From positions 1-64,000 of the forward strand of contig NIVC01000955.1 of assembly GCA_002269645.1 (NCBI GenBank): a stretch of 64,000 nt of DNA, given 5' to 3'. Shown piece by piece: positions 1-17,000 of this stretch (its first letter is position 1; each line of letters starts with the position of its first letter). The notes under the pieces were generated by a model. That model made no database searches and was not told the DNA's origin. It worked only from the letters and a program-made list of their open reading frames with translations. The stretch comes from Macrostomum lignano. Lineage: Eukaryota. The position numbers and the translations under genes were made by a program.

Positions 1-2049
1 AAACAAAACCATTACGATGCTTTGTTCATATCAACACGCATCAATGAGTTTAAAAAAGTTTTGCTCATCAATGACAATTAGAGAGGATTTGCGAAAGACC
101 TCAATGGTTCACGACATTACCGAACACGACTATTTAGAGCGCATGGACGAATGGTATGAATATTTACAATTTGATCTTATTTCTTTATGCGCCTGTATTC
201 ATAAGTATAATGAAATAGCATATGAAATTGGAGGAATGACAATGTTCGATACTCTTACCTGTTCAAGTTTAACATTAAAATGTTGGTTTAAAGATTTTGT
301 TAGAGTTGAAGACAAAATGAAACAATATCTAAAGACAGAAGAAAAAACTAATTACATTAAAAAAGTTGAAGAAATAATATCTCCGTTGAAAATAGAGGAT
401 TATTTTGACTTAAGCAAACTTGAAAAAGCAAAATACCAAACACTATTAAGAAATTTTCAGTTCACTCTCATACCAATCCTTATATACGAAGGTTTATGCG
501 GGACGCAGTCAAAGGAGGCAGGGTATTTGCACTAATAAATAAATATGAAAGCGACTGTTTTCAAACAATTGTAGACGTTGTAAAAAGCCCATTTAAAAAC
601 ACCAACAAGCGACCCATGCGAGGTTATATCATTTATCTCAAAAGCGATATGGAAGAAAAAAAGAAAATCGCAATTAAACTAAAAAAGCAATTGGGTACCG
701 CATCAGATTGTTTAATGAATTTTGATGGAGTTTCGTTGTACCCATCTGCCATGTCTGATAAGGATAGTGAATATCCAAGAGCAGAAACAGCAAGAGTTTT
801 TGATATAAGCGAGGAAAAAGATTTCTTGGCACAATTTAATTCACAAACCTTTCGACCAAAAACAGCGGTTTTAAAGATTATGTATGAGAATCCTAACACC
901 GTTTTTCTTCAACATCTCCCATCGAAAGATAAAGAGAAATTTTATAATCCGGAAACAAAAGCAAACGAAACAAAAACATTAAATAGGTTTAGAAACGGAA
1001 AAGTAATTGACACCTTATGTTCCGTAGATATACAAGAAATTGTAAGAATGGGTGGAAAAATATTAAAGATATATAGTGGAATTGTATATGAAAAAAATTA
1101 CGATTTCTCTCCGTTTCAGAATTATATTACAAATCTTTTTGAAATGAGAAAAGTATTTAAAAAAGAAAATAACGAGGCAGGTTCTGAATTGGTAAAAACA
1201 CTATTAAATTCATTATATGGCAAAACAGTTCAAAGAGACATTACTTTCACAACACATCTCTGGAATTTGCAAACATTAAAAACCGAATACGATGACACAA
1301 TCAAATCATATGAGAAAATATGTGACGATTTATATTATGTTGAAAAAAATAAAGACACGCAAGAATATGTAGATGAGGAAGAGGAAAGTCCTATAACAAG
1401 CCTTTGTCCAGCACAATTAGGAATATTTATCTTAGCTCATTCAAGAAGGATCATGAATAATTTTATTACCTCTATAGAGGGCTCAAAGACTCCAGAAATT
1501 TATTACGGCGATACAGATTCGTTATATATACATAAAAAACATTGGGACACATTAAATAAAAACGGGCATGTTGGAAATAACTTAAGTCAAGGAAAAAATG
1601 ATTATGGAGAGGGTGGAATTATATTCGGTTATTTTATCGCTCCTAAAATTAAATATTGTCTTTTATTGAAAGACGATTTTATTATGGAAGAGAAAAAAAC
1701 ATTTAAAGGATGTGCAAACGATAAGATTAATTTTGCATCGTTTAAAACTTTATATGATGGACAGTCAATAAAAGTAAATAATAATGCTCCGTGGAAACGA
1801 TCATTTGAAGGTGGTATAACAATTCCTCAAAGCGGATCAACAATATCAAAAACATATACCTCTACGATAAACACATTTAAAAGAGAAAAACCGGATAAAA
1901 ACGGAGTTATGAAACCATTCTTTAAAAACTATTTTGATGACAAACCACAGCATGAACATTCAATTGAATATTATAACAGTTTACTATTTGACGTTGACTA
2001 TAATTGTTTTGAGTTCGATATTGATGAATTAGCACTTGAAAAAAACTAA
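1..2049 (+). CDS. polB: Protein-primed family B DNA polymerase (5'-truncated by window edge; one frameshift near 465)
   Basis: Motifs KGGRV, DGVSLYPSAM, KTLLNSLYGK, YGDTDS and KIKY. ORFs 17..535 and 496..2049 join by a 1-nt shift (…HTNPYIRRFMRDAVKGGRV). Confidence 0.95.
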
Positions 2050-2086
2050 AGCATGTAATTGTTTAAGCATAATATCCATTTCGATT

Positions 2087-2379
2087 TCATATAATATTGA
2101 AGGCAATTTCCTCGCAGTCGTCAGGGTAACTTAAACAATCCTTTATTTTTTTCCTAAGTTTTTTTATTTTTCTAACCAATCTATCTATTTCAATTTCAAT
2201 TACTGTTTCAGCATAAGCAATTGCAGATTTAATAAAACGTTTTCTTTTATCCATTTCATATCGGATGGGAAACATATCGTCCCCATACTCATGATATTTC
2301 TGAGATATAATTATATTTATTTTTTATTAATATCATTAAGTTCACGCTCTTTAGTGATAAGGATTTTTATCGTATCCAT
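2087..2379 (-). CDS. Small viral hypothetical protein, probably frameshifted in an A-run near 2320
   Basis: AAAAATG start near 2379 (MDTIKILITKERELNDINKK). It continues in another frame into ORF 2087..2275. Confidence 0.4.
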
Positions 2380-2394
2380 TTTCTTATAAAAAAT

Positions 2395-2727
2395 TTAGTC
2401 TTCGTCGTCATCCTCCCAAACAGCCGCCAATTTTACAGTCCTATCACTCTTTTTATTATTTGTTTGTTTTAGTTTAAATTGCAATCCACCCTCGTTGCAG
2501 TATTTCATAACAAACGCTTTAGGTTTATTAATAACTAAAACAGGAAAATTTTTAACATCATCTCCGCTTAGACATAAAATTTTTTGCCCATCTAATTGTA
2601 AAAATATTGATTGAAGCCCAATAAATTTAACCTGTCTCAAACATATAATATTATATTCTTTATTCTCCAACATATTGGGTGTGAGATAATTAATCACATT
2701 AGAATCGGTTTTGAACCAGCTCTCCAT
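2395..2727 (-). CDS. Viral hypothetical protein with acidic C-terminal tail (possible ssDNA-binding protein)
   Basis: TAAAAATG start at 2727, about 110 aa, beta-strand-like pattern, ends WEDDDED. Function is inference only. Confidence 0.5.
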   Translation of the reverse strand: MESWFKTDSNVINYLTPNMLENKEYNIICLRQVKFIGLQSIFLQLDGQKILCLSGDDVKNFPVLVINKPKAFVMKYCNEGGLQFKLKQTNNKKSDRTVKLAAVWEDDDED

Positions 2728-2766
2728 TTTTAATCTAAAAAAATAACAAAAAAATGAAAGACATTT

Positions 2767-3240
2767 ATGTGTAATAAATGTAATGTGACTATGCACAGAG
2801 GGCAAACAGCAAACGGAGATATATATCATATGTGTTATTCATGTTCTAAAATATATCAATTTGAAAAAACAAAAAAGATTGAAAACTCATATTACTATTT
2901 TAAAAATACAATTTTAAGAAATCTTACAAGAGACATTTCTGATCCAATTTTAATTCCCGGAAATAATGTTTATTTATATAATAACTTTTTCCATTTAAAT
3001 AAAGGAAAGGGATTAAGTTCGAAAGACTCCGAAAGGATTTTAATTTTAGTTGGATATTATTTCAATTTTCTTATTCGAGAGAATACAAAGTTTATAAGGA
3101 TAGGTAACATACCTAACGAAATGTTATTGAAAAAGTCATTGGAATTTTTATGTATTGATAAAAAATTTAAACCTAGAATCAGAAGAGAGTTACCACTTTG
3201 GGAAGAATATATAACATATGCATTAAATAAATTGTACTAA
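2767..3240 (+). CDS. Viral hypothetical protein with N-terminal CxxC...CxxC zinc ribbon
   Basis: CNKC...CYSC. Real start may be the AAAAAAATG at 2755 with a 1-nt shift. Confidence 0.55.
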   Translation: MCNKCNVTMHRGQTANGDIYHMCYSCSKIYQFEKTKKIENSYYYFKNTILRNLTRDISDPILIPGNNVYLYNNFFHLNKGKGLSSKDSERILILVGYYFNFLIRENTKFIRIGNIPNEMLLKKSLEFLCIDKKFKPRIRRELPLWEEYITYALNKLY

Positions 3241-3257
3241 ACATGACAAGTCATGAT

Positions 3258-3285
3258 CGTGCCATAGGCACGCGTGCTTTGCACG
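3258..3285. mobile_element. 28-bp double-hairpin element, copy 1 (intergenic, just past the stop of ORF 3287)
   Basis: AT-cgtgcc(ata)ggcacg-cgtgc(ttt)gcacg-AT. Confidence 0.8.
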
Positions 3286-3286
3286 A

Positions 3287-3942
3287 TTAAACAACATTAA
3301 GTTCTACAGCACTTCCTGACCGCGGGCTTTGTGCCCCAGTAGCAATAGTTTCAGGTTCGTAAATACCTAATGTTTCTATAGGTGGAGCTTTGGGTTTGTC
3401 CAAACGTAATTCTTTTAATTCCATATCGGTAAAAGTTTCAACATCTAAAATTCTATTTCTATCTTTTAAATATTTTTCATATAATTCAACCGCGGTTGAT
3501 AATTCATGAATCGTTATCTCTCCGTCATCCAATATTTTTTGCACATATAAATATAATTGATTTTTATATTGTTTTGCAACATCTCTTAAAGATTTATATT
3601 TTTCCTTTCTTTTTTTAAGATATAATTTAATTGCTAAAAGTATTGATAAGTTCTGATCAATTCAAAACCTGATATTGAGCCAATTGAAATACCTAAAAAT
3701 AATTGAGATAAATTAAGAGTTGGAATAGATTGTAAAATACCTAAAACGATTACACATAACATTGATAAGCTTCCAAATCCAATATTGAAAAAGTCCATAT
3801 TTCTTATATGGTTTGAAACTCTTCTTACTTTTTTAGCATATAAATCATAATCATAATTTATTCGATCAACATTACTCAACATCTGACCTTTACGTTGGTT
3901 GAACCGGTCGCGTTCCCATTTATCTGCTTCAGATACCGACAT
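3287..3942 (-). CDS. Two-TM viral membrane protein of the Maverick family sometimes called GasderminX-like (frameshift near 3640)
   Basis: Hydrophobic hairpin (FFNIGFGSLSMLCVIVLGIL...LFLGISIGSISGF), then basic KKRKEKYK and a KILDDGEITxxELxxxxExYEKY motif recalled from Maverick accessory proteins. ORFs 3634..3942 and 3287..3544 join by a frameshift. Confidence 0.55.
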
Positions 3943-4253
3943 TCTCGTCTATTTTTAATAGCACCAAAATGAATTCCCCGCGCTCTTGGGGATTTGCCCG
4001 AGCTCAATAGGTATTGTATTGGAGTTATTCTTTCTTTTTTCTCCCATTTAAATCCTATTTTCCAAAACTCTTGAAGTATAATATGATTTTTTAATAACTT
4101 AATTAATTCTTGAAGCTTCTTATTATCCTGAACATTTACAGTACTAAATAAAAATTTGGTATGAGATTTGAATGTTTTTATATTTGATTCTTGTTTAGGA
4201 ATAGGAATAATAACATTATTTTGCCGCATCGATGGAGTTCTACTAAAAGCCAT
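3876..4253 (-). CDS. Viral hypothetical basic protein
   Basis: TATAAAATG start at 4253 (MAFSRTPSMRQ...). The C-terminus may be affected by a frameshift. Confidence 0.45.
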   Translation of the reverse strand: MAFSRTPSMRQNNVIIPIPKQESNIKTFKSHTKFLFSTVNVQDNKKLQELIKLLKNHIILQEFWKIGFKWEKKERITPIQYLLSSGKSPRARGIHFGAIKNRRECRYLKQINGNATGSTNVKVRC

Positions 4254-4284
4254 TTTATATAGAAATATTTTATATATAAATATT

Positions 4285-6327
4285 TTATATTTGAGTAGGA
4301 GGTTTTTCCAAATAAGCAGTAGAGGGAAAAACATAACCAAACGACGTACTACCACATACAACTGCACCACGAATAAAATGTGCAGCATCCGCTCCACCAG
4401 TTCGAGCACCAAAACCCATAAGGGTTCCAGATTTATCTAAAGTTCCCCAAGTTCCACTATCATATGTGAAAACGTTCTGTCCAATGAGGGTAAAAGAATC
4501 ACCAGCAACATTGTATGACTGTAATCGGTACCAAACCCTTTGATTTAAAATATTAACTTCAAAAAGATGCCAATTGCCGTTATCAATATTAGCATAGGCT
4601 ACAGTTTGATCTGCGTCAGTATTAACATCCGCGCGGCTTGATCCGTCTGATTTTTTATTACTCCAAACAACTCCAAACCTATCATGCCACTCACTTGCAA
4701 AAACTATCAATCCGGCGTCGGTTGATAATCCAGTTCCAAATTCCGATGTTGGACGTTGGTGACAGTATGCATAAAACCAAACCGCATCTGCACCATCTCC
4801 TGTAGCATTAGCAACTCGGAAAAAGAAAGACGCAGATATATTTTGAAAATGTGTGAAATTGAATTGTAAAGCACCACTTACTCCAGAAGTTTCACGAGTA
4901 ATTCTAGCGCCGTTTTGATAATCGATATAAGAAGCATCGCTAATTAAAGAACCGACTGGATATATATCTCCGGCGGTTGTTGGATTTTGATATCCAGACC
5001 AATTGCAAATTACTGGTTCGAACAAGGCCGCATCAATAGCAGGTATTCCATCCAATTTATTTTTATCGCTTCCAGACATTCTACCATTTGATGTTGGAGT
5101 AGCTAGCTGATCTACGTACGCTCGCGGAACTGCAGAAAGTATTTGAGTTGGCCAATTAAGATCTTGAATTTCAACACGGTGTTCAAATAATTGTATTTGA
5201 CGAACCTCGATAGGTTGTGTACCGGTACCACCAGTTGGGAAGAATACGCTATAATATTTCCAAAAATTAGTCGTTAAATTAGATAGAGCAAATGATGTTG
5301 CTTGAACTGGTGATCCCGACGTAGTTAATGTCGTCCATGAATCGGTAGCAACATTTTTTGCGCGAACCGACCACCCCGAGGGTATCTCAATTGTTTCACT
5401 GCCTGTAATTCTTAATTCAAATATTCTTCTATTATAACCTAAAAATTCAAATTGAATTTCCATATTGGTTGTGGTTCCGGTATTTGGTGACCATTGTGTC
5501 GCAAGGCTTCCATCTCCAACTCGAAAAGCTGTGTTGCCATTTTCAGATGCTGTAAGAACAACATCAGGATTTGAAGTATTTGATGTAAGCGGCGTGGTAA
5601 AAATATCGGCGTCGGTTGCATTAGCTCGCTCATTTACTTGGCCTAGAGTTATCGAGTCTGCGTTCTCTGTTCCAAATAATAAATTTGTTAATTTAAAATT
5701 ATTCATATTAATATTTCCACTACGAGTGGCAACTTGATTATCGACATAGTTCTTATCAACCACTGAATCACTAGTTGTAATTGAAACATTTATAATTCGG
5801 TTGTTGCTCATATCTAGGTTTCCGGTTGCGGTGGTTTGAACATAACGTGAATCAGAATCAGTTCGAGAATAAGAATCAGTTACATCTCTTTTTAAATTTA
5901 ATCCATTATCAACTTCGGTTTTGGTATAAGAATCGGCTACGTTCCGTTTCAAATTTAATGAATTATCAACTTCGGTTTTGGTATAAGAATCGGCTGTATT
6001 GCGTTTTAAATTTAATGAATTATCAACTTCGGTTTTGGTATAGAATCGGCTGTATTGCGTTTTAAATTTAATGAATTATCAACTTCGGTTTTGGTATAGG
6101 AATCGGCTACGTTCCGTTTCAGATTTAGTGAATCATCTATTTGAGTTTTGGTATAGGAATCTGCAACATTTCTTTTTAAATTTATTTATTATCAATTTCA
6201 CTTTTTTTATAACCTTCATCTCATTAATATATCGATTATCTCCAAATGTAACACTTATTCCACCAGATGTGCCACCACCACCACTACTTGTTGTTCCGTT
6301 CCATGAGGGTGTTCCAGAAAATAACAT
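4285..6327 (-). CDS. Fibre/spike-like structural protein: 19-aa repeat stalk, discoidin-like domain, C-terminal ConA/L-type lectin-like domain (frameshifts in the 5' part)
   Basis: Start at 6327 (MLFSGTPSWNG). About 6 repeats of NVADSYTKTEVDNSLNLKR. Fibre-type motifs LDMSNNRIINV...DKNYVD and NMNNFKLTNL. F5/8-like segment (FRVGDGSLATQW...WTTL...IEVRQIQLF). Lectin-like segment (GADAVWFY...NGNWHLFEVNI...GFGARTGG). Confidence 0.7.
5895..6190 (-). repeat. 57-bp coding tandem repeat (19-aa units) in the fibre gene
   Basis: Unit on + strand: aatgaattatcaacttcggttttggtataagaatcggctacgttccgtttcaaattt. Confidence 0.9.
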
Positions 6328-6337
6328 TTTTTACTGT

Positions 6338-6775
6338 CTATTTTATAGAGTCTAAAATATTCTTAAATACTTCGGGGGTTTCCTTCGAGTTATTAATTTT
6401 ATATAAAAAATACAACGCCGCTTGCCCGCAATAACTTTTGTCAAATGTTTGAAATTGTTCGTGATGATCTCCACATAAACGATTTTTAGTATGATTAAAT
6501 TTGTCTTTTATTTCCTGTAACGGAGGAAGCGCGTATGAATCAAAAAAATAAACAAGTTTTGGTTTTGAATAAACTGCTGACCAATGAACACCGTTTTCTT
6601 TTGTTGTTTCAATATTAACAATGAAAGATCCATATTGTGGTAAGTCTTTGATCTCATCTCGCATAACACATCTGAATGGTTTTATTTTTAACTGCCTCGC
6701 CCAATTTGTTAATTCGATATTGCTTGTTGTGTCCGTTCCATATCTTTGTTTAAAATCATCCCACGTCATGGTCAT
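6338..6775 (-). CDS. Adenain-like (Ulp1-fold) maturation cysteine protease
   Basis: Catalytic motifs GVHWSA, FFDSY and Q...YCG. Intact 145-aa ORF. Confidence 0.92.
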   Translation of the reverse strand: MTMTWDDFKQRYGTDTTSNIELTNWARQLKIKPFRCVMRDEIKDLPQYGSFIVNIETTKENGVHWSAVYSKPKLVYFFDSYALPPLQEIKDKFNHTKNRLCGDHHEQFQTFDKSYCGQAALYFLYKINNSKETPEVFKNILDSIK

Positions 6776-6776
6776 T

Positions 6777-6986
6777 TTATGTTCCTGAAAAACTCTTGGT
6801 TTTAGTTAGTTTCGTAGGTGTGGGTTTTAACAATTCCTTTCTTATTTTATCAGCTTGTAACTGCCTTAATTTTGCTAGTTCTAGTTCGTAATTATCTTCA
6901 GCTTTTTTAACTTTTTCTGATTGTTTTTTTATTAAATTATTATTATTATCGTGCTTTGCACGCGAACATGTTGTTCGATTACCCAT
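6777..6986 (-). CDS. Small viral protein (MG start) carrying an in-frame double-hairpin insertion
   Basis: AAAAATG start; MGN[RTTCSRAKHD]NNNN. Confidence 0.55.
   Translation of the reverse strand: MGNRTTCSRAKHDNNNNLIKKQSEKVKKAEDNYELELAKLRQLQADKIRKELLKPTPTKLTKTKSFSGT
6950..6977. mobile_element. 28-bp double-hairpin element, copy 2 (in frame in ORF 6777..6986)
   Basis: AT-cgtgc(ttt)gcacg-cgaaca(tgt)tgttcg-AT. Confidence 0.85.
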
Positions 6987-6996
6987 TTTTACAGTA

Positions 6997-7779
6997 CTAA
7001 ACCTGTTTTATACGTAAAATTATTGTTATTGACTGCCCACCAAAACTTATTAATCTATCGCTTTCATCTACAATCCTAATATAAATTGATTGAACATTAT
7101 ATTGATTTAATGGGTAATATATTGGGGTTTGAGGTGATACAATCATTTTCTCTCCAATTGGAACAGCAAGAAATGGGATTGAATAAATAATTCCACGTTG
7201 AACCAAAACTCCATTATTATGTTATATAACCACCGTTTGATATGTCGGTTGTTATATTAATTGTATTACTCCACCCTCAATATTTCCCACTGTATCTCCG
7301 GTGCTTGATGTGGTAACTATTCGGGAATTAAATCCAAGTATGGTTCTGAGTGAATTTGCAATTGTGAAATCAACCTGATATCCGGATCCTAGTGATAGTG
7401 TGAATCTGCCAGACGGTAAATCAACACCTATAACAATTGCTCCTGTTACCCAATCACCATTAGTTGTTAATTCTCCTTCTATATAAGCATTCAAATCAGT
7501 ATAGCTATACGCTCCTGGGTTAATGCTAAATGTTGTCCAATTGGCTCCGGAATCTTTAGAATATCTAAATTGATTATTTGTTGCATTAATTAATTGAGGC
7601 ATGTTGAAAACCGAAAATAGTATTAAACCTATTTGATAACTTAGGCTTTGATCAAGTTGTAATGGATCGCGCAATTGAATCCGTTGCTCGCTGGTTGTCA
7701 TTATAAACTGTAATGTTGTACTAAATTTTGAATTAGTTCGATCTACCAATTGTTTTATAGTATTTAAATTTGTAGTCAT
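6997..7779 (-). CDS. Minor capsid protein (penton), frameshifted near 7210-7255
   Basis: PIQL..LSYQIGL, INPGAYSYTDLN, LRTILGF, and C-terminal SIYIRIVDESDRLISFGGQSITIILRIK, typical of the Polinton penton. Confidence 0.85.
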
Positions 7780-7799
7780 TTTTATAGTGGGAAATTAAT

Positions 7800-7827
7800 C
7801 GGACGAAGTCCGCGTTCCGAAGGAACG
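7800..7827. mobile_element. 28-bp double-hairpin element, copy 3
   Basis: AT-cggac(gaa)gtccg-cgttcc(gaa)ggaacg-AT. Confidence 0.85.
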
Positions 7828-7829
7828 AT

Positions 7830-7857
7830 CGTACCGAAGGTACGCGTGCTATGCACG
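7830..7857. mobile_element. 28-bp double-hairpin element, copy 4 (tandem with copy 3; supplies the ATPase stop codon)
   Basis: AT-cgtacc(gaa)ggtacg-cgtgc(tat)gcacg-AT. The TAG at 7849-7851 on the - strand lies within it. Confidence 0.85.
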
Positions 7858-8648
7858 ATCCTCTTCTTCCTCATTATCTTCTTTTATCAAATTTGTTAAA
7901 ATTCTATGTTTCCTTTCTAACCTCGGATTGATATAAATATGTTTGTATTGGCTATCATCCCAAATTTTTTTACACATACTTTTAAATGGTTTTGCATCCA
8001 ATCCGGGATTAAATCTAGCGTGTATATTTTGTAAATCATAATTATCTAAATCAAACATTACACAACAACTTGCATTCTTTTTTATAATCGATTCTAATTC
8101 TCTAAAGGACTGTGTTAGATAAAAAGCTCCAATTCCATCTCCTCTACCACTAACAAAAATTTCCTTTTGCAATTCTTGATCACCGTCATTAATACAATCA
8201 TCAAAAATAATTAGTGTTTTATCATGTTTTGGAATTTGATCATAGGCTAATCGGGTTGATACTCTAACAGTTGGGCTCGATCGGACGAAGTCCGCGACCC
8301 TTCGGGGCGATCGGTGATGTTTTCTGGCTGTTGTGCCATTGTTTTACATAAATCCTCAATGTCATCGAGTGTAAATCGCGGTTCGTCATCATCCTCATAT
8401 TGCTCATATGCTCTTAACATTCTAAACAAGACATCTTTTTTTAATTTGTTTTTTAATCCATGTTTAAGAAATTCATAATATTTTATTCTAGGTTTGTTAG
8501 TATAAATTATTAAATTATTATAGTCTAGCATTCCATCGGTTGTTAACAGGTCATAAACAAAGTGTGTTTTTCCTTTACCTGATCCTCCGATTACTAAACA
8601 AAGAAAAGGATCATTTGGAAATATTTTATTGTGTTTTGCCTTTACCAT
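7849..8648 (-). CDS. Genome-packaging ATPase (A32/FtsK-HerA type), frameshift near 8275
   Basis: Walker A GGSGKGKT. Walker B LIIFDD in the shifted frame (PTVRVSTRLAYDQIPKHDKTLIIFDDC). Arginine motif SGRG, then YLTQS. Confidence 0.92.
8282..8309. mobile_element. 28-bp double-hairpin element, copy 5 (in frame in the ATPase)
   Basis: AT-cggac(gaa)gtccg-cgaccc(ttc)ggggcg-AT; encodes RPEGSRTSSD. Confidence 0.85.
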
Positions 8649-8696
8649 TTTTAAAGAAATAATTTAAATAGGCGCGACGGTCGGAGACCTGCGACA

Positions 8697-10166
8697 CTAA
8701 AGTGGTGCGTCCCGAACAATCGTGCCATCAGCTTTAGCAATTGACATATATTCCTCTAGAAACAATACGTGTGCGTCTATTGCCTGATTACCGGTTTTAT
8801 TAATCTCTAACATATAATTAAGTCCAATATTGGCTACGTTTTCTTTCTGTGCCGTTAGATCATAAACAACCACTGGATGAATGTTTAGAAACTCTGTGGG
8901 TGTGTACTGAGGGACGGCATACGCTTCATTTTTAGCATAATCTTGATAATATTTTATAAAATCATTAACATTATTATTTGCAATATTTAGATTAGGGATC
9001 TTTAACCGGATAATATTGATCATCAACCTGCAGGCGGATATTCTGAACATTAAACTCGTTAATAGCTGCAGCCGCATTGTCTGTTGCGGTGGCTGCTTGT
9101 TCTGCTATGGCACCGGATTGAAGCCAATATAAATCCCCATTTGCTCTTTTACTCCTTCTATTTGTTATCTTAAACCAAACAAAAATATATCTCACCCGAC
9201 GTTTTGATGTCAGTATTTGCCACTGGAATGAATCCTGGTTATTATTAATGGTTCGCATAAAATGTCGACGATTCAAATAAAATATTTCCTGATCATGCGT
9301 TAACTGATTATCGATGTGTTTTAAAAGTGGGGCTGTTACCTCAATAGTTGGTACGACTAATTGAATTGAATCTATACGAACTGCTATATCGGTTGAAATT
9401 GAGGTTCCATAAAGTATCCTAGGCTGATATCCACCAGATATTTGCAACTGTATCCCAAATTTTAATCCTTTCCATACCCGATTTGGTGAGAAAACCCAAA
9501 TAGTGGAAAGATTGAAAAGTCCTGCTCATATGCTGTTGCTGTGGTTAAAACCGCGACTGGGAATTTATTCTGACGATCTATAAAACCAGTATTAATATCT
9601 TTTGTATTAGTCATAGTGGTTACAACTGGAACTATGTTTGTATTAAGGTAAACAATTAGCGCTGCAGTATCTGCACCGGCTGCGTTTTGTACATTAGGGA
9701 AAACTACTGCTTGCCCGTTACCTTTATCCGGCATCCACCCAACATTATCACCAACTTGTTTTGATAAATAAGTATAATTTAAATGTTTCAAAACTCCATT
9801 AATCTCTGCGGGATTTGATGCTGTCTCAACCTCGGCTCCATTAACTGATAGTTGGGCTTGGGAAAAACATTTATAAAACCAATCATTTTCTATTATTATT
9901 CCGGATCGATCTGCGATATCTCCGGCTGCAAGAGCAGTTCCATCATTTCTAGTATATAACCATCTAACACGGAAAAATGCATTTTTCATATCCAATATAG
10001 TGTTGGTTGCGCCGATGTCAAAAGTTACCGTTCCAGTAGTAAAGTTATTTGAATTATCACTTGTTGGTAGGGTATAATTTAAATCTCTTGCTCTGACCTC
10101 ATTAATATACTGTCGGTGCTTTTTGAAATGAAATTTATCACTCCACATAGTTTTTGTTTCAGCCAT
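8697..10166 (-). CDS. Double jelly-roll major capsid protein, two frameshifts (near 9480 and 8995)
   Basis: TVTFDI, FSQAQLSVNGAEVE, FPLFGFS-(shift)-RVWKGLKFGIQL, RVRYIFVWFK, IRLQVDDQYYP-(shift)-NLN, PVVVYDLTAQKE. This is a Polinton MCP pattern. Confidence 0.9.
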
Positions 10167-10200
10167 TTTTTTAAGTTAAAAAAGTTTTTTATGTTAAAAA

Positions 10201-10872
10201 ATGAGTCAATTTATGGACGTTGATGGAGAGTTAGCGATTTATAAAGAGAAGCAAAGATATTCTGATTTTGTTAGAAATTTACAAAAAAGAAAGTTAGGAA
10301 TACAATTAGCTGGCGAAAGATTTGCTGCTCCTTTTGTTAATCCTATTACTGGGAAAATTAGTGAACTAGAAAAAACAGATAAAGACCTTCTGGAAAAAAT
10401 TGCTAAAAATACGGAGCCAAAAGAGGATGAAATTTTGGATGAGCCGCCTGCTTATGAGACTGATCAAGCAATATTTAGAGTTGCAGAAATTAGACGTGAA
10501 GAGATTAGGGGTGGAGTTGAACAATTTCCAAGAGATGCGCCACGTAGTATTGCTGCGACAGATTTAGGTGGTGGTAATTATCGAATTGGTAACGTTGTTA
10601 AAGATCGAAATGAACTATATAGAGAATTGGGCGGAGCATTTAATATTATTACGAACCCTAGGGTAAAATTTAACCCCGATTTATATACTAGGGATGAATT
10701 AATAAGTGCTAGAATTTTTTATGATGAGTTAGGAGGAGCTGTTAAAAATACCAGCTTGTATAAATGGATTGTTAATTCTATAAATAACAAACCAGCTGTT
10801 GGTGATGGATTTAAAACACCGCGAAAACTTGTTTTAGCTGCTGCGAAAGCTGCTGGACATACTGGAGTTTAA
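10201..10872 (+). CDS. Viral hypothetical protein (possible core protein)
   Basis: Intact 223-aa ORF with TAAAAAATG start, head-to-head with the MCP gene. Confidence 0.65.
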   Translation: MSQFMDVDGELAIYKEKQRYSDFVRNLQKRKLGIQLAGERFAAPFVNPITGKISELEKTDKDLLEKIAKNTEPKEDEILDEPPAYETDQAIFRVAEIRREEIRGGVEQFPRDAPRSIAATDLGGGNYRIGNVVKDRNELYRELGGAFNIITNPRVKFNPDLYTRDELISARIFYDELGGAVKNTSLYKWIVNSINNKPAVGDGFKTPRKLVLAAAKAAGHTGV

Positions 10873-10900
10873 TTAATTGTTAAATTTATTTTTTTATAAA

Positions 10901-11470
10901 ATGGATGAAACAAAAATTTGTACTACGTGTAAAATTGAGAAACCGATGACTAAAGAATTTTTTTGTTGGAGAAATGACACAAAAAAATTTAAAAATCTTT
11001 GTCGATCTTGTGAGAAAGTTAAATGTACTATGTGGAGAATAAACAATAAAGATAAATGTAATAAATATGCAAAAAATAAATATCGCACTGATGAAAATTT
11101 CAAAAATATTAGTCTAATTAGAGCTAAAATAACTTGGGCATTGAGAACTTTTCATGACAAACATTATATCTCCTATCTTGGTTGCACAAAAGAATTCTTT
11201 TTTGATTGGTTAAATTTCACAAGAAATTATTATGTTCCAAAAAATTATACTGGAAAGTTAGATATTGATCATTTCATTCCCGCTTCTTCATTTAGTTACA
11301 AAGACGATGATCAGATTAAAAAGTCTGAAAATTGGAGAAATAAAAGATACTTAACTAGCGTAGATAATAACTATAAAAAAGTTAAACAACCAACAATTGA
11401 AGAATTTGCGAAACAATTGGTGCTATCATGTATTTTTAAGGCTATTAAAAATGAACCAAATAGTGTTTGA
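10901..11470 (+). CDS. Free-standing HNH (endonuclease VII-like) nuclease with N-terminal zinc finger
   Basis: TATAAAATG start at 10901. CTTC...CRSC zinc finger, YLGC, and HNH core DIDHFIP...ENWRNKRYL...DN. Intact 189 aa. Confidence 0.8.
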   Translation: MDETKICTTCKIEKPMTKEFFCWRNDTKKFKNLCRSCEKVKCTMWRINNKDKCNKYAKNKYRTDENFKNISLIRAKITWALRTFHDKHYISYLGCTKEFFFDWLNFTRNYYVPKNYTGKLDIDHFIPASSFSYKDDDQIKKSENWRNKRYLTSVDNNYKKVKQPTIEEFAKQLVLSCIFKAIKNEPNSV

Positions 11471-11576
11471 AGGAGGATTTTTAGACTTACAAAAAGGATT
11501 AACAAGCTTACCACCAATCTTTACTACTGGGAGGTATACGGGTGAGCTACACCTACCATCAATGAACTTCACAGGT
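11451..11576 (+). CDS. PLA2-integrase fusion, exon 1
   Basis: AAAAATG at 11451; MNQIVFEGGFLDLQKGLTSLPPIFTTGRYTGELHLPSMNFTG. Joins in frame to exon 2 to give NFTG|PGTRL. Confidence 0.85.
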
Positions 11577-11879
11577 TATCCCGTGGCCTGAGTGGTAGAA
11601 GCAAAGCTACTGCTAGTCACTATTAGTGGCGATGTCTCCAAATTGCGTGAACCCCGTCATACAGCTTCAAGTACCACTTCAATTGAGAAATCTTTTGAAG
11701 GAACAGAGGTAACTCCTCTTCCCAAAGGTAAAAAGCTTGAAGACATGGTGGCAATGCGCAGCCAAGCTCCTAAGTATTTTAAATATAAGGAGAAGGTTCA
11801 GAGAGCAGACGGAGATGGGCGGTAATTATCGCCGCTTAAGGTGTGCTCCAGCCTCTTTCGAAAGATTGAGGGTAAACAG
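11577..11879 (+). ncRNA. Group I self-splicing intron (IC-like, with P2.1 and P5abc; no internal ORF), 303 nt
   Basis: P1: exon CAGGU pairs with GCCUG (11586-11590), giving U.G at the 5' splice site. P: AAAUUGCGUGAA (11640). Q: AAUGCGCAGCC. R: GUUCAGAGAGCA (11796-11807). S: UUAAGGUGUGCUCC. P7: G-A(bulge)-GAGCA/UGCUCC. P3: GUCUCC/GGAGAU. P8: GGCGGU/AUCGCC. L9 is GAAA. Terminal G at 11879. P10 can pair with exon 2 CCGGGGA. Confidence 0.93.
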
Positions 11880-13028
11880 CCGGGGACTAGACTGGATTTA
11901 AGATTAAATCCTGACAATACTCCAAAATCTGATTCAATTCCAATAAATGGGATTGATTGGTTAGCATACTATCACGACTTAGCATATAGAGATGCTGACA
12001 AGAACCCGCCCGAGGAAGCATTAAGATTAAAACATGATGCCGATCAAAAAATGATTCAAGGATTAGATAACTTGCAGGGATTATCGGTAGGTCAAAAATT
12101 AACTAGGTGGATGGTTAAAAAGATCTTGCAGTCTAAAGTTAAATTTGGTTTGGGAATTAATTATAATCAACATGGAAATAATTGTGTTGAGTGTTTGTTG
12201 TTAAGTGGCGGCGGGTTAAGTTCTGATGAGGCAAAGATTCTTCATAAAGAATATCGAAAACCTAAATTTTATAGAAAAATCATGAACTTCAAAAAGAATG
12301 AAATTTGGTATGCTGATTTAATGTCGATGCCGAACGAAAGAGGATATAAATATATCTTAACCATATTAGATGGTTTTACTCGATACGCGTGGGCTGTTCC
12401 TTTAAAATCCAAAAAGGGAGAGGAGGTTGCTGCTGCTTTTAGAAGTCTTGGAGAAAAAAGTGAAAGGTTGTGTGTTGACGAAGGAAAAGAATTTTACAAT
12501 CCTCACATGTATAAATTGTATCATTTTGAAAAAGGACAAGAAAGGAAAAAGGACGCGAATGGGGAGTATATTAATAAAATTTATTCTATTTATGGAGAGA
12601 GTAAAAACGCATTAATAGAAAGATTTAATAGAACTTTAGGTAAGAAATTATGGTTTCAGTTTAGTCTTAATGGTAACCAAAAATGGGTAAAAATATTACC
12701 AGACGTAGTGAAAGATTATAACAATTCATATCATTCGGCGATAAAGATGACTCCTCAACAAGCTTATAACAATCCTGAAAATGTTAGGGTTACTTTTGGA
12801 AAATTTGAAAAAAATAAAAAGAAATCTTTTAAGGTTGGTGATTCTGTTTATATCTATAAATGGAAAGATAAGTTTGAAAAGGGAAGAAAAGGATATTGGA
12901 AGATAAGTGAGAAATTTACCATCAGTAAAGTTTTAAATACAAATCCTACAACCTATATAATTGCTGATAAGGATGGTGAAGAAATATTGGGTTCTTTTTA
13001 TGAGAATCAGATATTATCTGCAAACTAA
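11880..13028 (+). CDS. PLA2-integrase fusion, exon 2: parvovirus-type phospholipase A2 domain plus retroviral-type DDE integrase
   Basis: PGTRL...INGIDWLAYYHDLAY...HDAD (PLA2 His-Asp). Integrase motifs WYADL, ILDGFTRY, CVDEGKEF and IERFNRTL, with C-terminal FKVGDSV...GSFYENQI. Spliced product is 424 aa. Confidence 0.93.
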   Translation, partial: PGTRLDLRLNPDNTPKSDSIPINGIDWLAYYHDLAYRDADKNPPEEALRLKHDADQKMIQGLDNLQGLSVGQKLTRWMVKKILQSKVKFGLGINYNQHGNNCVECLLLSGGGLSSDEAKILHKEYRKPKFYRKIMNFKKNEIWYADLMSMPNERGYKYILTILDGFTRYAWAVPLKSKKGEEVAAAFRSLGEKSERLCVDEGKEFYNPHMYKLYHFEKGQERKKDANGEYINKIYSIYGESKNALIERFNRTLGKKLWFQFSLNGNQKWVKILPDVVKDYNNSYHSAIKMTPQQAYNNPENVRVTFGKFEKNKKKSFKVGDSVYIYKWKDKFEKGRKGYWKISEKFTISKVLNTNPTTYIIADKDGEEILGSFYENQILSAN

Positions 13029-13038
13029 GTTCGATCAG

Positions 13039-13293
13039 TTACTTAAGACAACATGGTAGTAAATTTTTTATAACAAACAAAAACAATATTATTACAATAA
13101 TTGTTACTAATATTATTATTGACATTTGTTCAACTGTTATCAAACTTAAATTTTCATTAAGTTCATTAATCGGCACATTTCCGATGTAGGAATAATCGTG
13201 CAAAGCACGCGAACCATGGGTTCGATTTACCTTCATTTTTTTATATATATTTTTCACAATAAATGTCGTTTCTGTTATAGAATAATAGTTCAT
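13039..13293 (-). CDS. Small viral membrane protein with an in-frame double-hairpin insertion
   Basis: C-terminal TM segment IIILVTIIVIILFLFVI; VN[RTHGSRALHD]YSY. Confidence 0.55.
   Translation of the reverse strand: MNYYSITETTFIVKNIYKKMKVNRTHGSRALHDYSYIGNVPINELNENLSLITVEQMSIIILVTIIVIILFLFVIKNLLPCCLK
13197..13224. mobile_element. 28-bp double-hairpin element, copy 6 (in frame in ORF 13039..13293)
   Basis: AT-cgtgc(aaa)gcacg-cgaacc(atg)ggttcg-AT. Confidence 0.85.
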
Positions 13294-13309
13294 TTTTTAA
13301 ATATTTTTT

Positions 13310-13624
13310 TCACATAAAAATTTCACTTTCATTCTCTGAATCACTGGTTTCATATGAACTATTTGTTGATTCGGAATCTGTTGATCTAACCTCCCAATCA
13401 TCCGAATTTAAATAATCTCCAAGTTGAAATATTAACTCACCCTCTTGTTCTAAATCATACATCTCATCTAGCTCTAATGGATAAAGTTTTAGGTCGTGCT
13501 TGTCGTCATATTTTAAATAAACTTCATCAATTATTCCATTCAAAATATGTTGTTTTATTATCTCTGCATTTTTAGCAACAGTCTCAAAAGTATCACTAAC
13601 AGAAAAGGTGTAAACTCGGTTCAT
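13310..13624 (-). CDS. Acidic viral hypothetical protein
   Basis: TATAAAAAATG start; 104 aa with D/E/S-rich tail. Confidence 0.55.
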   Translation of the reverse strand: MNRVYTFSVSDTFETVAKNAEIIKQHILNGIIDEVYLKYDDKHDLKLYPLELDEMYDLEQEGELIFQLGDYLNSDDWEVRSTDSESTNSSYETSDSENESEIFM

Positions 13625-13714
13625 TTTTTATAACAGAAAAAGACCCTTCGCGCCTGCGGCGCGTGCGACGGGTTCTAGAAAGTTTGTGTGTGTTGGAGAG
13701 AGTTGGAAGCGTTG

Positions 13715-13952
13715 ACGATACAAAATACCCAGCAAACCAAAGCGAGCGACGAGGGCGTGTTCTCACCATTCAAAAAGAATTAATCGTTGTAAGTGTGAAA
13801 TGGCCTGTTTGACCGAAATGAAGCGAGGATGAGCGAAGCGAGTTGAGCGAAGTGAAGACGAGCGAAAATGAAGGGAAACAGGCCATTTCACACTGATAAA
13901 GGGTTAAATTGTTTGCAATGGTGAGAATGGTTTGCTGGGTATTTTGTATCGT
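13715..13952. repeat. Subterminal interrupted inverted repeat (long hairpin) in the Polinton right terminus
   Basis: Perfect arm pairs 13715-13739/13928-13952 (25 bp), 13760-13770/13917-13927 (11 bp) and 13792-13810/13876-13894 (19 bp). Confidence 0.9.
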
Positions 13953-14016
13953 ATATACTACTGACACTCAAATAAGACATCTACAGATAGTTAACCACCC
14001 AGTTTAAGAGACAAAC

Positions 14017-17000
14017 CTTCTCTTGTGCAATCAATCTAGCCAGCTCTTCTTCTCTTTCAGCCTTCCGCGTCCTTAACTCTGCCAGGAGGCTGCGCAGCTC
14101 CCTGTACCGCTCCAGCAGCCGGCGCCGCTCGCCAGAACTCAACTTCCTCAAAGGCCGCAAAGTGTTGCCGCTGCTGCCGCCGCTGCCGATGGTCAGCTGG
14201 CACAGGTGTCTGGCGTGCTGCTGCTGGCGCAGATGCCTGGATGTAGCCGCTTTGATTGCCGCCGACTGTTGCAACAGATCCGACGATGTCGAAGAGCCGA
14301 CGCTCTGCTGCGACAGCGAGCAACAGTCGTCGCTGGGGTCGGTCAGGATACTTGGCAACTGGGCTGGGAGCCGGTTCACACTCTGCGAGCTGTTATCTGA
14401 AAGATTCGCAAAAGTCGCGCGGAGTAACTAAAAAGCTAATATCAATATTTTTACTACTAGTAGAGCATCGCGTACACCCTCGTTGTTTTTATTAGCTAGA
14501 ATTTAAATGATTTTTGCTACATTTCTACTATCAGTAGTGTATCAAGTATATCAAATAAAAGCTCATTGTTATTAATTTTATTCTCAACACTAATCACACA
14601 ACAGTTAGGTCGCTAAATTAGTAGTTTAAAAAGGTCCCGGGTTCGATTCTGTAAAAATACACTCACAAGTCTATTTTCGAGTCTTATATTTAAGTACGCT
14701 AATTATGCGGTCAAGAAGCAGAATCAGTACTTTGGAGGTCCCGAGTTCGAATCTTAACAAATTTATTTACCCATTAATATATATAGAGCTCTAATTTAAT
14801 AGAGCTCATGAATAGGATACATTAGCAAGAATGGAGGTCCCGGGTTCGATTCGCAATAGCGAATCATACTCTCAATCGTTGATTTATTGTAGGCTGGAAT
14901 GCGGCTGACTGGATTAACTGGAAAGCAGGAAACTTGAAGCGCAGTAGAAAACATTCTGACTGCACTGCACCCAACCTAAATCACACTGTATCAGACACTA
15001 TATGCTTAGTGCATTAATACTAAAGTAATATGCTCGGGCACGCCAGAGGAAAATGAATCTAAGCAATTAACTTATGCGTAGAACTTGCAGTGCCCCGCCA
15101 ACACAAGCGCTTCCATAAATCTCCACTGTATAAGGGGCTTGTCCATAGTGCAAGTTTTCTAATATAATTTCAGGTTAATAACAGGGAAATTCTCAGGTTA
15201 ATAACAGGGAAATTCTCAGGCTAATAATAGGGAAATTCTCAGGTTAATAACAGGGAAATTCTCGGGTTAATAACAGGGAAATTCTCAGGTTAATAACAGG
15301 GAAATTCTCAGGTTAATAAGAGGGAAATTCTCAGGCTAATAACAGGGAAATTCTCAGGTCAATAACAGTGTGACTCTCAGGTTAACAGGCGGCAAACAGG
15401 TTACAGAAGCACTTATTCTTACACAGAGCCGGATGCTGCGATGTTTTCAGATCGCGCAGACTTCTACCGCCCGCGCTGCTACTACCTGAATGAAAGGTGG
15501 CGGTTGCTAAGGCGTTGTCAGGCGGTGTAACCACAACAGGCAGCTCAATGTTGGAGGGACTCGCAGTGGCTGACGCCAGAGACACCTGGGAGAATAGCAA
15601 ATGTGTAACTGACTGAAGTTATGGCCATAGAATAAAGTACTATAAGCAACATTATGGTCTAACTAATACGGTTTAGGCTTAAATATTTGTGGTAGAAAAT
15701 GAACAATATTGAGCGACTGATCAGATTTTACACATTCATTATGTGGCTACTCTATTCTTATAGACTAGGAATACAATCGATAGAACAGGAATAGAATGAA
15801 TAGCACAAGAATAGAATGGATAGCTAATCTAGCCGACAAAGAAGTCAGAGAACTTTATCCAGACTCACAAGGTTGTACGATCCGCGTCGTTTTTTCACGA
15901 TTCTGATGTGCATTTTAGCAATATTTTAGCTAGAGGAAATATAAGCAGAAAAATATGCTACCATGGAATAATATACACCTACGGGTTGATATGCCAGAAT
16001 TGCTTCCCGTATGGAACCAGGTAAAAAAGGAGTTAGAATTTGCGCAGTAAACTTATATATACTTACATACTGTAGAATTTTCTGGCTCCTTCTCTTTCAG
16101 TTTTCATGCCTCCATAGTTTCAGTCAATCAACACCTTTTGTCGCCCTTGCTCTAAGCTTTCTACCCTCTTTCGATAAGCACGTTGGGCTAAACTTAGTGA
16201 GCTTGCTTAATTAGCAGTCTGTAAGCATCTCTTTTTAATGCCTATTGGCGGCGTTTTCTACCTTTTAGTAGATGACACTAAACAGTGTACAACGCCGACA
16301 CACGCAACTAAGCAAGAAAATTTCTAATTTGTCCGAAATCGTTTTGTACATAGGACAGTTGTGCTTTAAGGCGGTACAAGGTCGATTGTGTATCAAGGCG
16401 GTACAAGATCGATTGTGTCTTAAGGCGGTAAAAGGTAGATTGTGTCTCAAAGCGGTAAAAGGTCAATTGTGTCTCAAAGCGGTAAAAGGTCAATTGTGTC
16501 TCAAGGCGGTAAAAGGTCAATTGTGTCTCAAGGCGGTAAAAGGTCAATTGTGTCTCAAAGCGGTAAAAGGTCAATTGTGTCTCAAGGCGGTAAAAGGTCA
16601 ATTGTGTCTCAAGGCGGTAAAAGGTCAATTGTGTCTCAAGGCGGTAAAAGGTCAATTGTGTCTCAAGGCGGTAAAAGGTCGATTGTTTCTCAAGGCGGTG
16701 CAAGTTCGATTGTTTCTCAAGGTGGTACAAGGTCGATTGTGTCTCAAGGTGGTACAAGGTCGATTGTGTCTCAAGGTGGTACAAGGTCGATTGTGTCCCA
16801 AGGTGGTAAAAGCTCGATTGTGTTTCAAGGCGGTACAAGGTTGATTGTGTCTCAAAGCGGTAAAAGGTCAATTGTGTCTCAAGGCGGTAAAAGGTCAATT
16901 GTGTCTTAAGGCGGTAAAAGGTCAACTGTGTCTCAAGGCGGTAAAAGGTCAATTGTGTCTCAAGGCGGTAAAAGGTCGATTGTTTCTCAAGGCGGTGCAA

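Follow-up and report, generated by a model that had tools for sequence, protein, structure and literature searches.

The first 64,000 nucleotides of a Macrostomum lignano contig (GenBank NIVC01000955.1; hereafter the window) begin with the right part of a Polinton/Maverick element in which a small open reading frame (ORF) for an HNH nuclease stands just upstream of a PLA2-integrase gene interrupted by an ORF-less group I intron. The HNH gene occupies an exchangeable slot: in 37 of 140 sister copies the same place is taken by a different nuclease, related to the restriction enzymes Eco47II and EcoO109I. The intron splits a GGNCC sequence, and GGNCC is absent from the part of the element that lies in the window. 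We favour, with moderate confidence, the interpretation that the Eco47II-like protein is a methylase-free GGNCC cutter, against which its carriers would be safe through loss of sites and through the intron, so that it would act as homing enzyme for the intron; the HNH protein would be a rival nuclease. For a broader proposal we would give about even chances: that a 4-bp cutter turned into a single-target homing endonuclease, that it moves between intronic and free-standing states, and that it vies with HNH nucleases for both positions.

A preliminary description of the locus had proposed that the HNH gene and the intron form a two-part selfish system. The observation of an HNH gene beside the intron stands; its first interpretation is partly supported and is overtaken by a richer system. 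The features concerned are:

1..13969, strand not assigned: Polinton/Maverick copy, truncated on the left where the contig begins (pPolB, weak A32-like ATPase, rve integrase, motif counts)
10201..10872, plus strand: Polinton ORF of 223 aa that bounds the nuclease slot on its left (ORF list, slot comparison)
10901..11470, plus strand: zinc-finger, helical and HNH (beta-beta-alpha-Me) nuclease in the exchangeable slot (motifs, homologues, sister-copy survey)
11451..11576, plus strand: first exon of the PLA2-integrase gene, whose last codon is GGT (Gly)
11574..11576, plus strand: GGT, 5' half of the split GGNCC site
11577..11879, plus strand: ORF-less group I intron, 303 nt, with guide at 11586-11590 and P7 at 11803-11807 with 11844-11848 (RF00028, fold)
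11880..11881, plus strand: CC, 3' half of the split GGNCC site, opening the Pro codon
11880..13028, plus strand: PLA2-integrase exon 2 (rve, weak Phospholip_A2_4)

A group I intron splits the Gly-Pro-Gly loop of the PLA2-integrase gene

The intron matches Rfam family RF00028 with 57 bits (gathering cut-off 50, E 6.8e-14); a filtered scan of positions 1-15000 at the gathering threshold missed it, and an E-value scan recovered it. Other introns score higher (85.2 bits in L139, 80.6 in L241, 63.2 in L093). In P1, exon CAGGU pairs with the guide GCCUG (11586-11590), leaving a U-G pair at the 5' splice site. P7 is formed by GAGCA (11803-11807) and UGCUC (11844-11848), and differs by compensatory pairs in the introns of L139 and L241. 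The predicted fold is unusually stable (z -3.3; none of 100 shuffles as stable). A spliceosomal intron was considered for 11577-11879 and excluded because GT..AG removal yields an immediate stop. The window intron has a terminal G, and 82 of 112 main-type sister introns end in CTA instead, with P7 unchanged (e.g., L005, L017 and L094). Four sequencing runs presumed to be RNA showed no exon joint across the intron, a result that carries no weight for or against splicing.

The preliminary description was right that the intron is ORF-less, as it contains no ATG-initiated ORF of at least 80 aa; a stop-free frame is retained in the register used by the read-through ORFs described below. The insertion separates the Gly and Pro codons of the PLA2 Gly-Pro-Gly (GPG) loop (GGT|CC). 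Exon 2 matches rve and, weakly, Phospholip_A2_4, and a natural intron-less copy matches Phospholip_A2_4 above its cut-off. Seven of 120 PLA2-integrase homologues start at or just before Pro-Gly-Thr, as a split gene would.

A second intron type was observed in L265, L099, L111 and 20 more loci. Its 5' splice site is that of the main intron, matched by a compensatory change in the guide; peripheral sequence is likewise shared with the main intron, but the core is different and has no RF00028 match at E<=0.01. At its 3' end, this intron appears to change the codons for Pro-Gly in the PLA2 loop. Insertions of about 0.8-6.7 kb lie inside the intron in L117, L149 and L217, and L137 has two exon-1 matches 750 nt apart.

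Two nucleases alternate in one slot

Searches of the host's own genome, made in a 764-Mb assembly, yielded 130 HNH matches, 173 intron candidates, of which 40 were scored, and 507 exon-2 candidates, of which 150 were scored. We classified 148 loci of the window's family (family A), one per genomic place, with two HNH places left out. HNH loci comprise 84 with the main intron, 16 with the second intron type, three without intron and four unresolved; loci with another gene in the slot comprise 30, seven and, unresolved, three, plus one truncated locus. Hence, 140 copies are resolved, of which 103 carry HNH and 37 an Eco47II/EcoO109I-like nuclease; the intron is present in 137, and the three intron-less copies all carry HNH. 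The alternative gene encodes a PD-(D/E)XK nuclease of 167-172 aa; it begins in the same sequence context as HNH and overlaps the start of PLA2 to the same extent. Its presence in 37 of 140 copies indicates that HNH is optional and that the slot is shared.

These figures bear on the preliminary description in several ways. The co-occurrence that it had proposed to survey is seen in 100 of 103 HNH copies, and 37 intron copies carry the Eco47II-like nuclease instead. Its view of an insertion at a conserved site with a mobile nuclease nearby agrees with the optional HNH gene found beside an intron at a conserved codon pair; strict pairing does not. A nuclease should also never share an element with its uninterrupted target, and that expectation fails in three of 103 HNH copies. 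These are L015 (intact ORF, GGC|CC) and L130 and L147 (GGT|CC; intact ORF in L130); L130 and L147 are 99.4% identical and thus perhaps represent one event. With the slot alternating, intron-less HNH copies present and only a loose correlation between HNH and intron distances (Spearman 0.36), the HNH-plus-intron pair as a two-part system is not supported.

The alternative nuclease resembles GGNCC-cutting restriction enzymes and also resides inside introns

The cut-off of Pfam family PF09553 (RE_Eco47II), 25.9 bits, is exceeded by an intronic homologue (P0005, 26.2) and by P0008, and a free-standing one (P0004) reaches 21.7. Atlas neighbours are Eco47II and EcoO109I clusters. The structure model (pLDDT 89) shows one domain of 168 aa, and no additional DNA-binding module is visible. 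Its best fold match is EcoO109I (Z 9.6, root-mean-square deviation 3.7, 165 residues aligned; next row 6.7), and AvaII is also among the matches. The catalytic D..E-K motif is retained, and the ratio of non-synonymous to synonymous substitution rates (dN/dS) is 0.26. EcoO109I recognizes RGGNCCY and AvaII recognizes GGWCC. Homologues of Eco47II cut GGNCC (PMC10305163).

A second Polinton family of the same genome, family B, has a PLA2 about 57% identical to that of family A. Here, an Eco47II-like homologue is encoded within an intron at the same PLA2 junction; its ORF occupies a loop flanked by stems close to the 5' end and reads through into the core. Among 65 family-B loci, 34 have intron and nuclease (15 with a full-length ORF), 23 have neither, one has an intron without nuclease and seven are unclassified. 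An intron-less allele bearing this nuclease was not seen in any of the 37 family-A copies or the 23 intron-less family-B loci. The same is seen on an independent metagenome contig (L241), whose PLA2 gene is interrupted at this site by an intron that encodes the nuclease. Six of nine database homologues read through into this intron core.

In a tree of 24 rows, rooted at the midpoint only, intronic forms fall on both sides of the root and free-standing forms make up one clade. Together with the stop-free frame of the window intron, the tree makes loss of the nuclease from the intron the slightly more likely direction of travel. Turnover of this sort, with an intronic nuclease lost and a free-standing one gained, has been raised in PMC10448857. 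Scans of viral and genome contigs with the Eco47II-like alignment, the HNH homologue P0020 (see below), a PLA2 allele and pPolB returned no relatives.

Polintons of this genome are depleted of GGNCC

No GGNCC occurs in 13,950 bp of the window Polinton, compared with 14.6 expected from local dinucleotide shuffles (0 of 200 as low) or 11.9 from a Markov model. Host DNA in the window has 98 in 44 kb, against 74-96 expected. Both variants of the motif are missing (GGWCC 0 versus 8.5, GGSCC 0 versus 6.1). Codon shuffling predicts 10.6 sites (0 of 1000 as low) and synonymous permutation 3.5 (28 of 1000 as low), and under both codon nulls GGNCC is the most depleted of 136 gapped 4-mers.

Because any Gly-Pro codon pair spells GGNCC, the Gly-Pro-Gly loop of PLA2 forces one site. 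Gly-Pro dipeptides are absent from 14 ORFs of the window Polinton, where 6.1 would be expected. Among integrase homologues they number 3 versus 33 (top 46), 14 versus 27 and 12 versus 18, a comparison of little weight as it involves one protein family. Across 132 non-independent family-A loci (440 kb), we found 10 GGNCC, of which three are the intron-less junctions and seven lie in three other loci. The 34 nuclease-bearing family-B loci have six in 91 kb, and in most intron-less family-B loci the junction is the only GGNCC in the stretch read.

Two other motifs are about threefold low in the window Polinton (CCNGG, 5 versus 14.8 expected; CTNAG, 11 versus 27.6), and GCNGC is twofold enriched in positions 1-13950. 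The Pro-Gly of the PLA2 loop spells CCNGG. Given these skews, other nucleases may act on the elements.

A cognate methylase was not detected among the window ORFs or among 12 matches to C5 enzymes (PF00145) in the genome, a search that did not cover the left parts of the elements or N4/N6 methylases. The 12 matches sit on nine contigs, none of which holds a listed Polinton copy. C5 DNA methylase matches of about 130 aa, single-exon-like, were noted at C33:104621, C2943:55086 and C2045:100952.

The HNH gene behaves as a mobile gene

As had been described, the HNH ORF is intact (189 aa) and overlaps the PLA2-integrase ATG (11451) by 20 nt; its stop ends 106 nt ahead of the exon-intron junction at 11576, close to the earlier estimate of about 105 nt. 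A CxxC..CxxC motif is followed by DH..WRN..DN. The protein has no Pfam family match, its PHROG matches are weak (endonuclease VII, E 0.001), and so are its predicted-fold matches (Cas9-HNH, Cap5 and Hpy99I, all with E>=0.07 or Z<=6). Its nearest clusters are unnamed viral clusters. A word-indexed search gave no homologue and a profile-free full scan gave 1268; in 57 homologues H124 and N156 are invariant and N147 nearly so. The HNH assignment is based on these conserved His and Asn residues and on the weak PHROG and fold matches.

At least 63 of 107 copies have a full-length ORF, nearly all with an intact catalytic motif, and dN/dS (0.48) suggests moderate purifying selection. Per-domain values in eight representatives are 0.64, 0.53, 0.40 and 0.14, all below 1, so diversifying selection is not supported; the N-terminal, DNA-binding half is the most variable (pi 0.19-0.25 versus 0.07-0.14).

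HNH alleles differ by up to 28% among copies whose capsid genes diverge by about 1%. HNH distances correlate weakly with those of every flank, including the intron, whereas intron and capsid gene distances correlate with a Spearman coefficient of 0.75. For instance, the window HNH differs by 0.3% from that of L001, yet their introns differ by 6.6%, and copies with HNH genes 10-19% away have the window intron in common. Optional among close relatives and exchanged independently of its flanks, the family-A HNH gene behaves, on sequence comparison, as a mobile gene. Decay of allele linkage between HNH and intron is expected once the intron is fixed. A linkage scan for the HNH target gave no clear peak apart from the start of exon 2: among 83 young copies, slot type associates most strongly with the first 45 nt of that exon (adjusted mutual information 0.33). 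The middle of the upstream ORF (about 10430-10870), for which no Pfam match was found, is hypervariable among otherwise near-identical sister copies and belongs to a mosaic island that reaches the start of exon 2.

A putative mechanism and its alternatives

From the above we infer GGNCC specificity and cleavage, splicing, homing and a target for HNH, in the following scheme. The slot upstream of the PLA2-integrase gene would be a turnover site for selfish nucleases. The Eco47II/EcoO109I-like enzyme, most likely a GGNCC cutter, would account for the intron. Polintons would have been emptied of GGNCC, even at the cost of Gly-Pro dipeptides, except where the Gly-Pro-Gly loop imposes a site. The intron would split that last site in DNA and leave the RNA by splicing, so that elements with the intron would need no methylase for immunity. 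A co-resident rival lacking the intron would be cut at its one site, and repair from an intron-bearing copy would transfer the intron plus the nuclease, which lies inside the intron in family B and 106 nt away in family A. HNH would be a second mobile nuclease that took over this slot. It probably acts in an allele-specific manner, nicking or cutting rival alleles within the PLA2 exons or close by; it would profit from intron immunity and need not be the enzyme that spread the intron.

Several observations weigh against this scheme. The share of intron-less copies does not differ significantly between Eco47II-like and HNH carriers (0/37 versus 3/103; Fisher p 0.57), and the copies are clonal and may include duplicated haplotypes, so that counts are not independent. 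An intact GGCCC persists at the intron-less junction of 18 of 23 family-B copies, in which about 1-2.6 kb per locus was read; this implies either that conversion is incomplete or that the GGCCC variant is cut poorly. The depletion of CCNGG and CTNAG means that some avoidance has other causes, and the GGNCC counts cover Polintons of this host only, without those of other hosts as control. A GGNCC cutter would also attack host DNA, with its 98 sites in 44 kb, and so needs late, lytic or compartment-limited expression. Lastly, known homing enzymes of the PD-(D/E)XK type read long sites, 23 bp in the case of I-Ssp6803I (PMC3384342).

One alternative is that HNH itself cuts the intron-less GPG junction and homes together with the intron, the two nucleases being interchangeable for one site. 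We consider this unlikely. Two of the best 150 HNH homologues, P0020 and P0069, read through into the core of this intron family. P0020 is 36% identical to the window HNH and groups with it in one broad clade (FastTree support 0.90; 71 rows, with 22 removed on length or motif). Its intron part agrees with that of an Eco47II-like carrier in 46 of 47 residues, which implies that an intron found elsewhere can house either nuclease, as the slot does here. However, P0020 is known from its protein only, with the host gene of its intron unseen. The presence of the intron in nearly all HNH copies and the exon-2 association would also fit co-homing, but the latter may be clonal, HNH and intron alleles are shuffled, and the intron is equally fixed beside the Eco47II-like nuclease. 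The intron-less HNH copies are a further difficulty, for which allele-specific resistance is conceivable. As the site of the Eco47II family is exactly the sequence split at the junction, the Eco47II-like enzyme is preferred as the partner of the intron.

GGNCC might have been purged under an outside enzyme, for instance that of a helper giant virus, with the Eco47II-like protein acting as an ordinary long-site homing endonuclease at the junction. Eco47II-like clusters do occur in Nucleocytoviricota, avoidance of sites is known as a way to escape restriction (PMC6286503), CCNGG and CTNAG are depleted as well, and the I-Ssp6803I precedent shows that a restriction fold can read 23 bp. Against this explanation, which seems to us improbable, no motif other than the family site of the element's own enzyme is fully purged, the 168-aa domain shows no further DNA-binding module, and Eco47II-like introns sit between exon flanks that differ at many positions. 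Still less probable is that both nucleases are mainly weapons against host or competitor-virus DNA, with the intron serving immunity alone and homing being incidental or not occurring. A genome-wide purge fits broad cutting, as do the lack of C5 methylase matches on the contigs of the listed Polinton copies and the variability of the DNA-binding half of HNH; however, the nuclease inside the intron in family B and L241, and the mosaic island around the slot on a background of about 1% divergence, fit gene conversion of the homing type. Finally, HNH could be a core Polinton gene, with a role in packaging or replication, that merely adjoins the intron. Its purifying selection and preserved catalytic motif would suit such a role, and packaging has been suggested for the HNH of one Polinton-like virus (PLV; PMC12220804). 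We rejected this candidate as very improbable: HNH is far more divergent than its flanks, 37 of 140 family-A copies lack it, and so do all of the 65 family-B loci as far as these were read. The first condition that the preliminary description had set for its own refutation, a conserved core gene, therefore fails.

Relationship to known systems

The absence of an adjacent methylase, a gene in or beside an intron, and self-protection by site loss plus intron would set the Eco47II-like nuclease apart from the Type II enzymes Eco47II, EcoO109I and AvaII. It shares with them the Pfam family and the predicted fold, and the family site GGNCC is both the purged motif and the junction. PacI, a methylase-free restriction enzyme whose host lacks the site, offers a parallel. 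I-Ssp6803I, a restriction-enzyme fold encoded in a cyanobacterial group I intron, owes its uniqueness to a 23-bp site (PMC3384342), whereas the Polinton enzyme appears to gain uniqueness by emptying the element of a 4-bp site.

Collaborative homing, in which a free-standing nuclease accompanies an ORF-less group I intron in a conserved gene, is known from T3/T7-like phages, cyanophage psbA and the ICP1 terminase (PMC2988022, PMC10448857), and has been floated for entomopoxvirus helicases (PMC11296320). The layout here is the same, and the idea of nuclease turnover (PMC10448857) fits families A and B. The differences are a eukaryotic Polinton as host, the alternation of two unrelated nucleases at one place, the coexistence of a nuclease's free-standing and intronic states within one genome, and a likely partner that is a short-site restriction enzyme. 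PLA2-bearing Polintons have been described from animals (PMC8502044), and short ORF-less group I introns with free-standing HNH or GIY-YIG genes from protist PLVs (PMC12220804); the PLV introns interrupt a short gene that precedes the capsid gene, and the accessible sections of that paper mention neither a nuclease partner nor a purge of sites. Fusions of HNH domains with Polinton polymerases have also been reported (10.1101/2023.08.22.554363). Like T4 mob/seg and I-HmuI-type enzymes, the window HNH is an optional gene that overlaps the start of its neighbour and is exchanged between close relatives; it belongs, however, to a different HNH subfamily. A literature search that covered few subscription papers found no PLA2-site intron, Eco47II-like homing partner or intron-based restriction immunity in Polintons.

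If the proposed mechanism is correct, homing specificity can arise by emptying a genome of a short site rather than by a long recognition sequence, and an intron can stand in for a methylase in self-protection. The sequences would also be evidence that Polintons, in the manner of co-infecting phages, fight and recombine. Because one genome would hold both states of the nuclease, free-standing and intronic, together with targets that lack the intron, the disputed passage between collaborative homing and mobile introns could be tested directly.

The window Polinton and its surroundings

The element was recognized as a Polinton by its pPolB, rve integrase, packaging ATPase (weak match) and more than 130 close copies. 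In the window copy, pPolB, the capsid-region ORFs and the ATPase seem fragmented (17-2049, 8247-10166), and the frames of HNH and PLA2-integrase are open. Dispersed between the genes are short repeats (3248-3289, 6945-6980, 7798-7859, 8280-8313 and 13192-13227), self-complementary in part, which are possible regulatory or mobile hairpin elements. Nested inverted repeats at the right end (13698-13969) form a long terminal hairpin. Nearby host ORFs encode a FERM-domain protein and a kinase, and the right flank contains three tRNA-like repeats (14629-14852) and several long tandem arrays (15124-20000) with units of 23, 27 and 35 nt.
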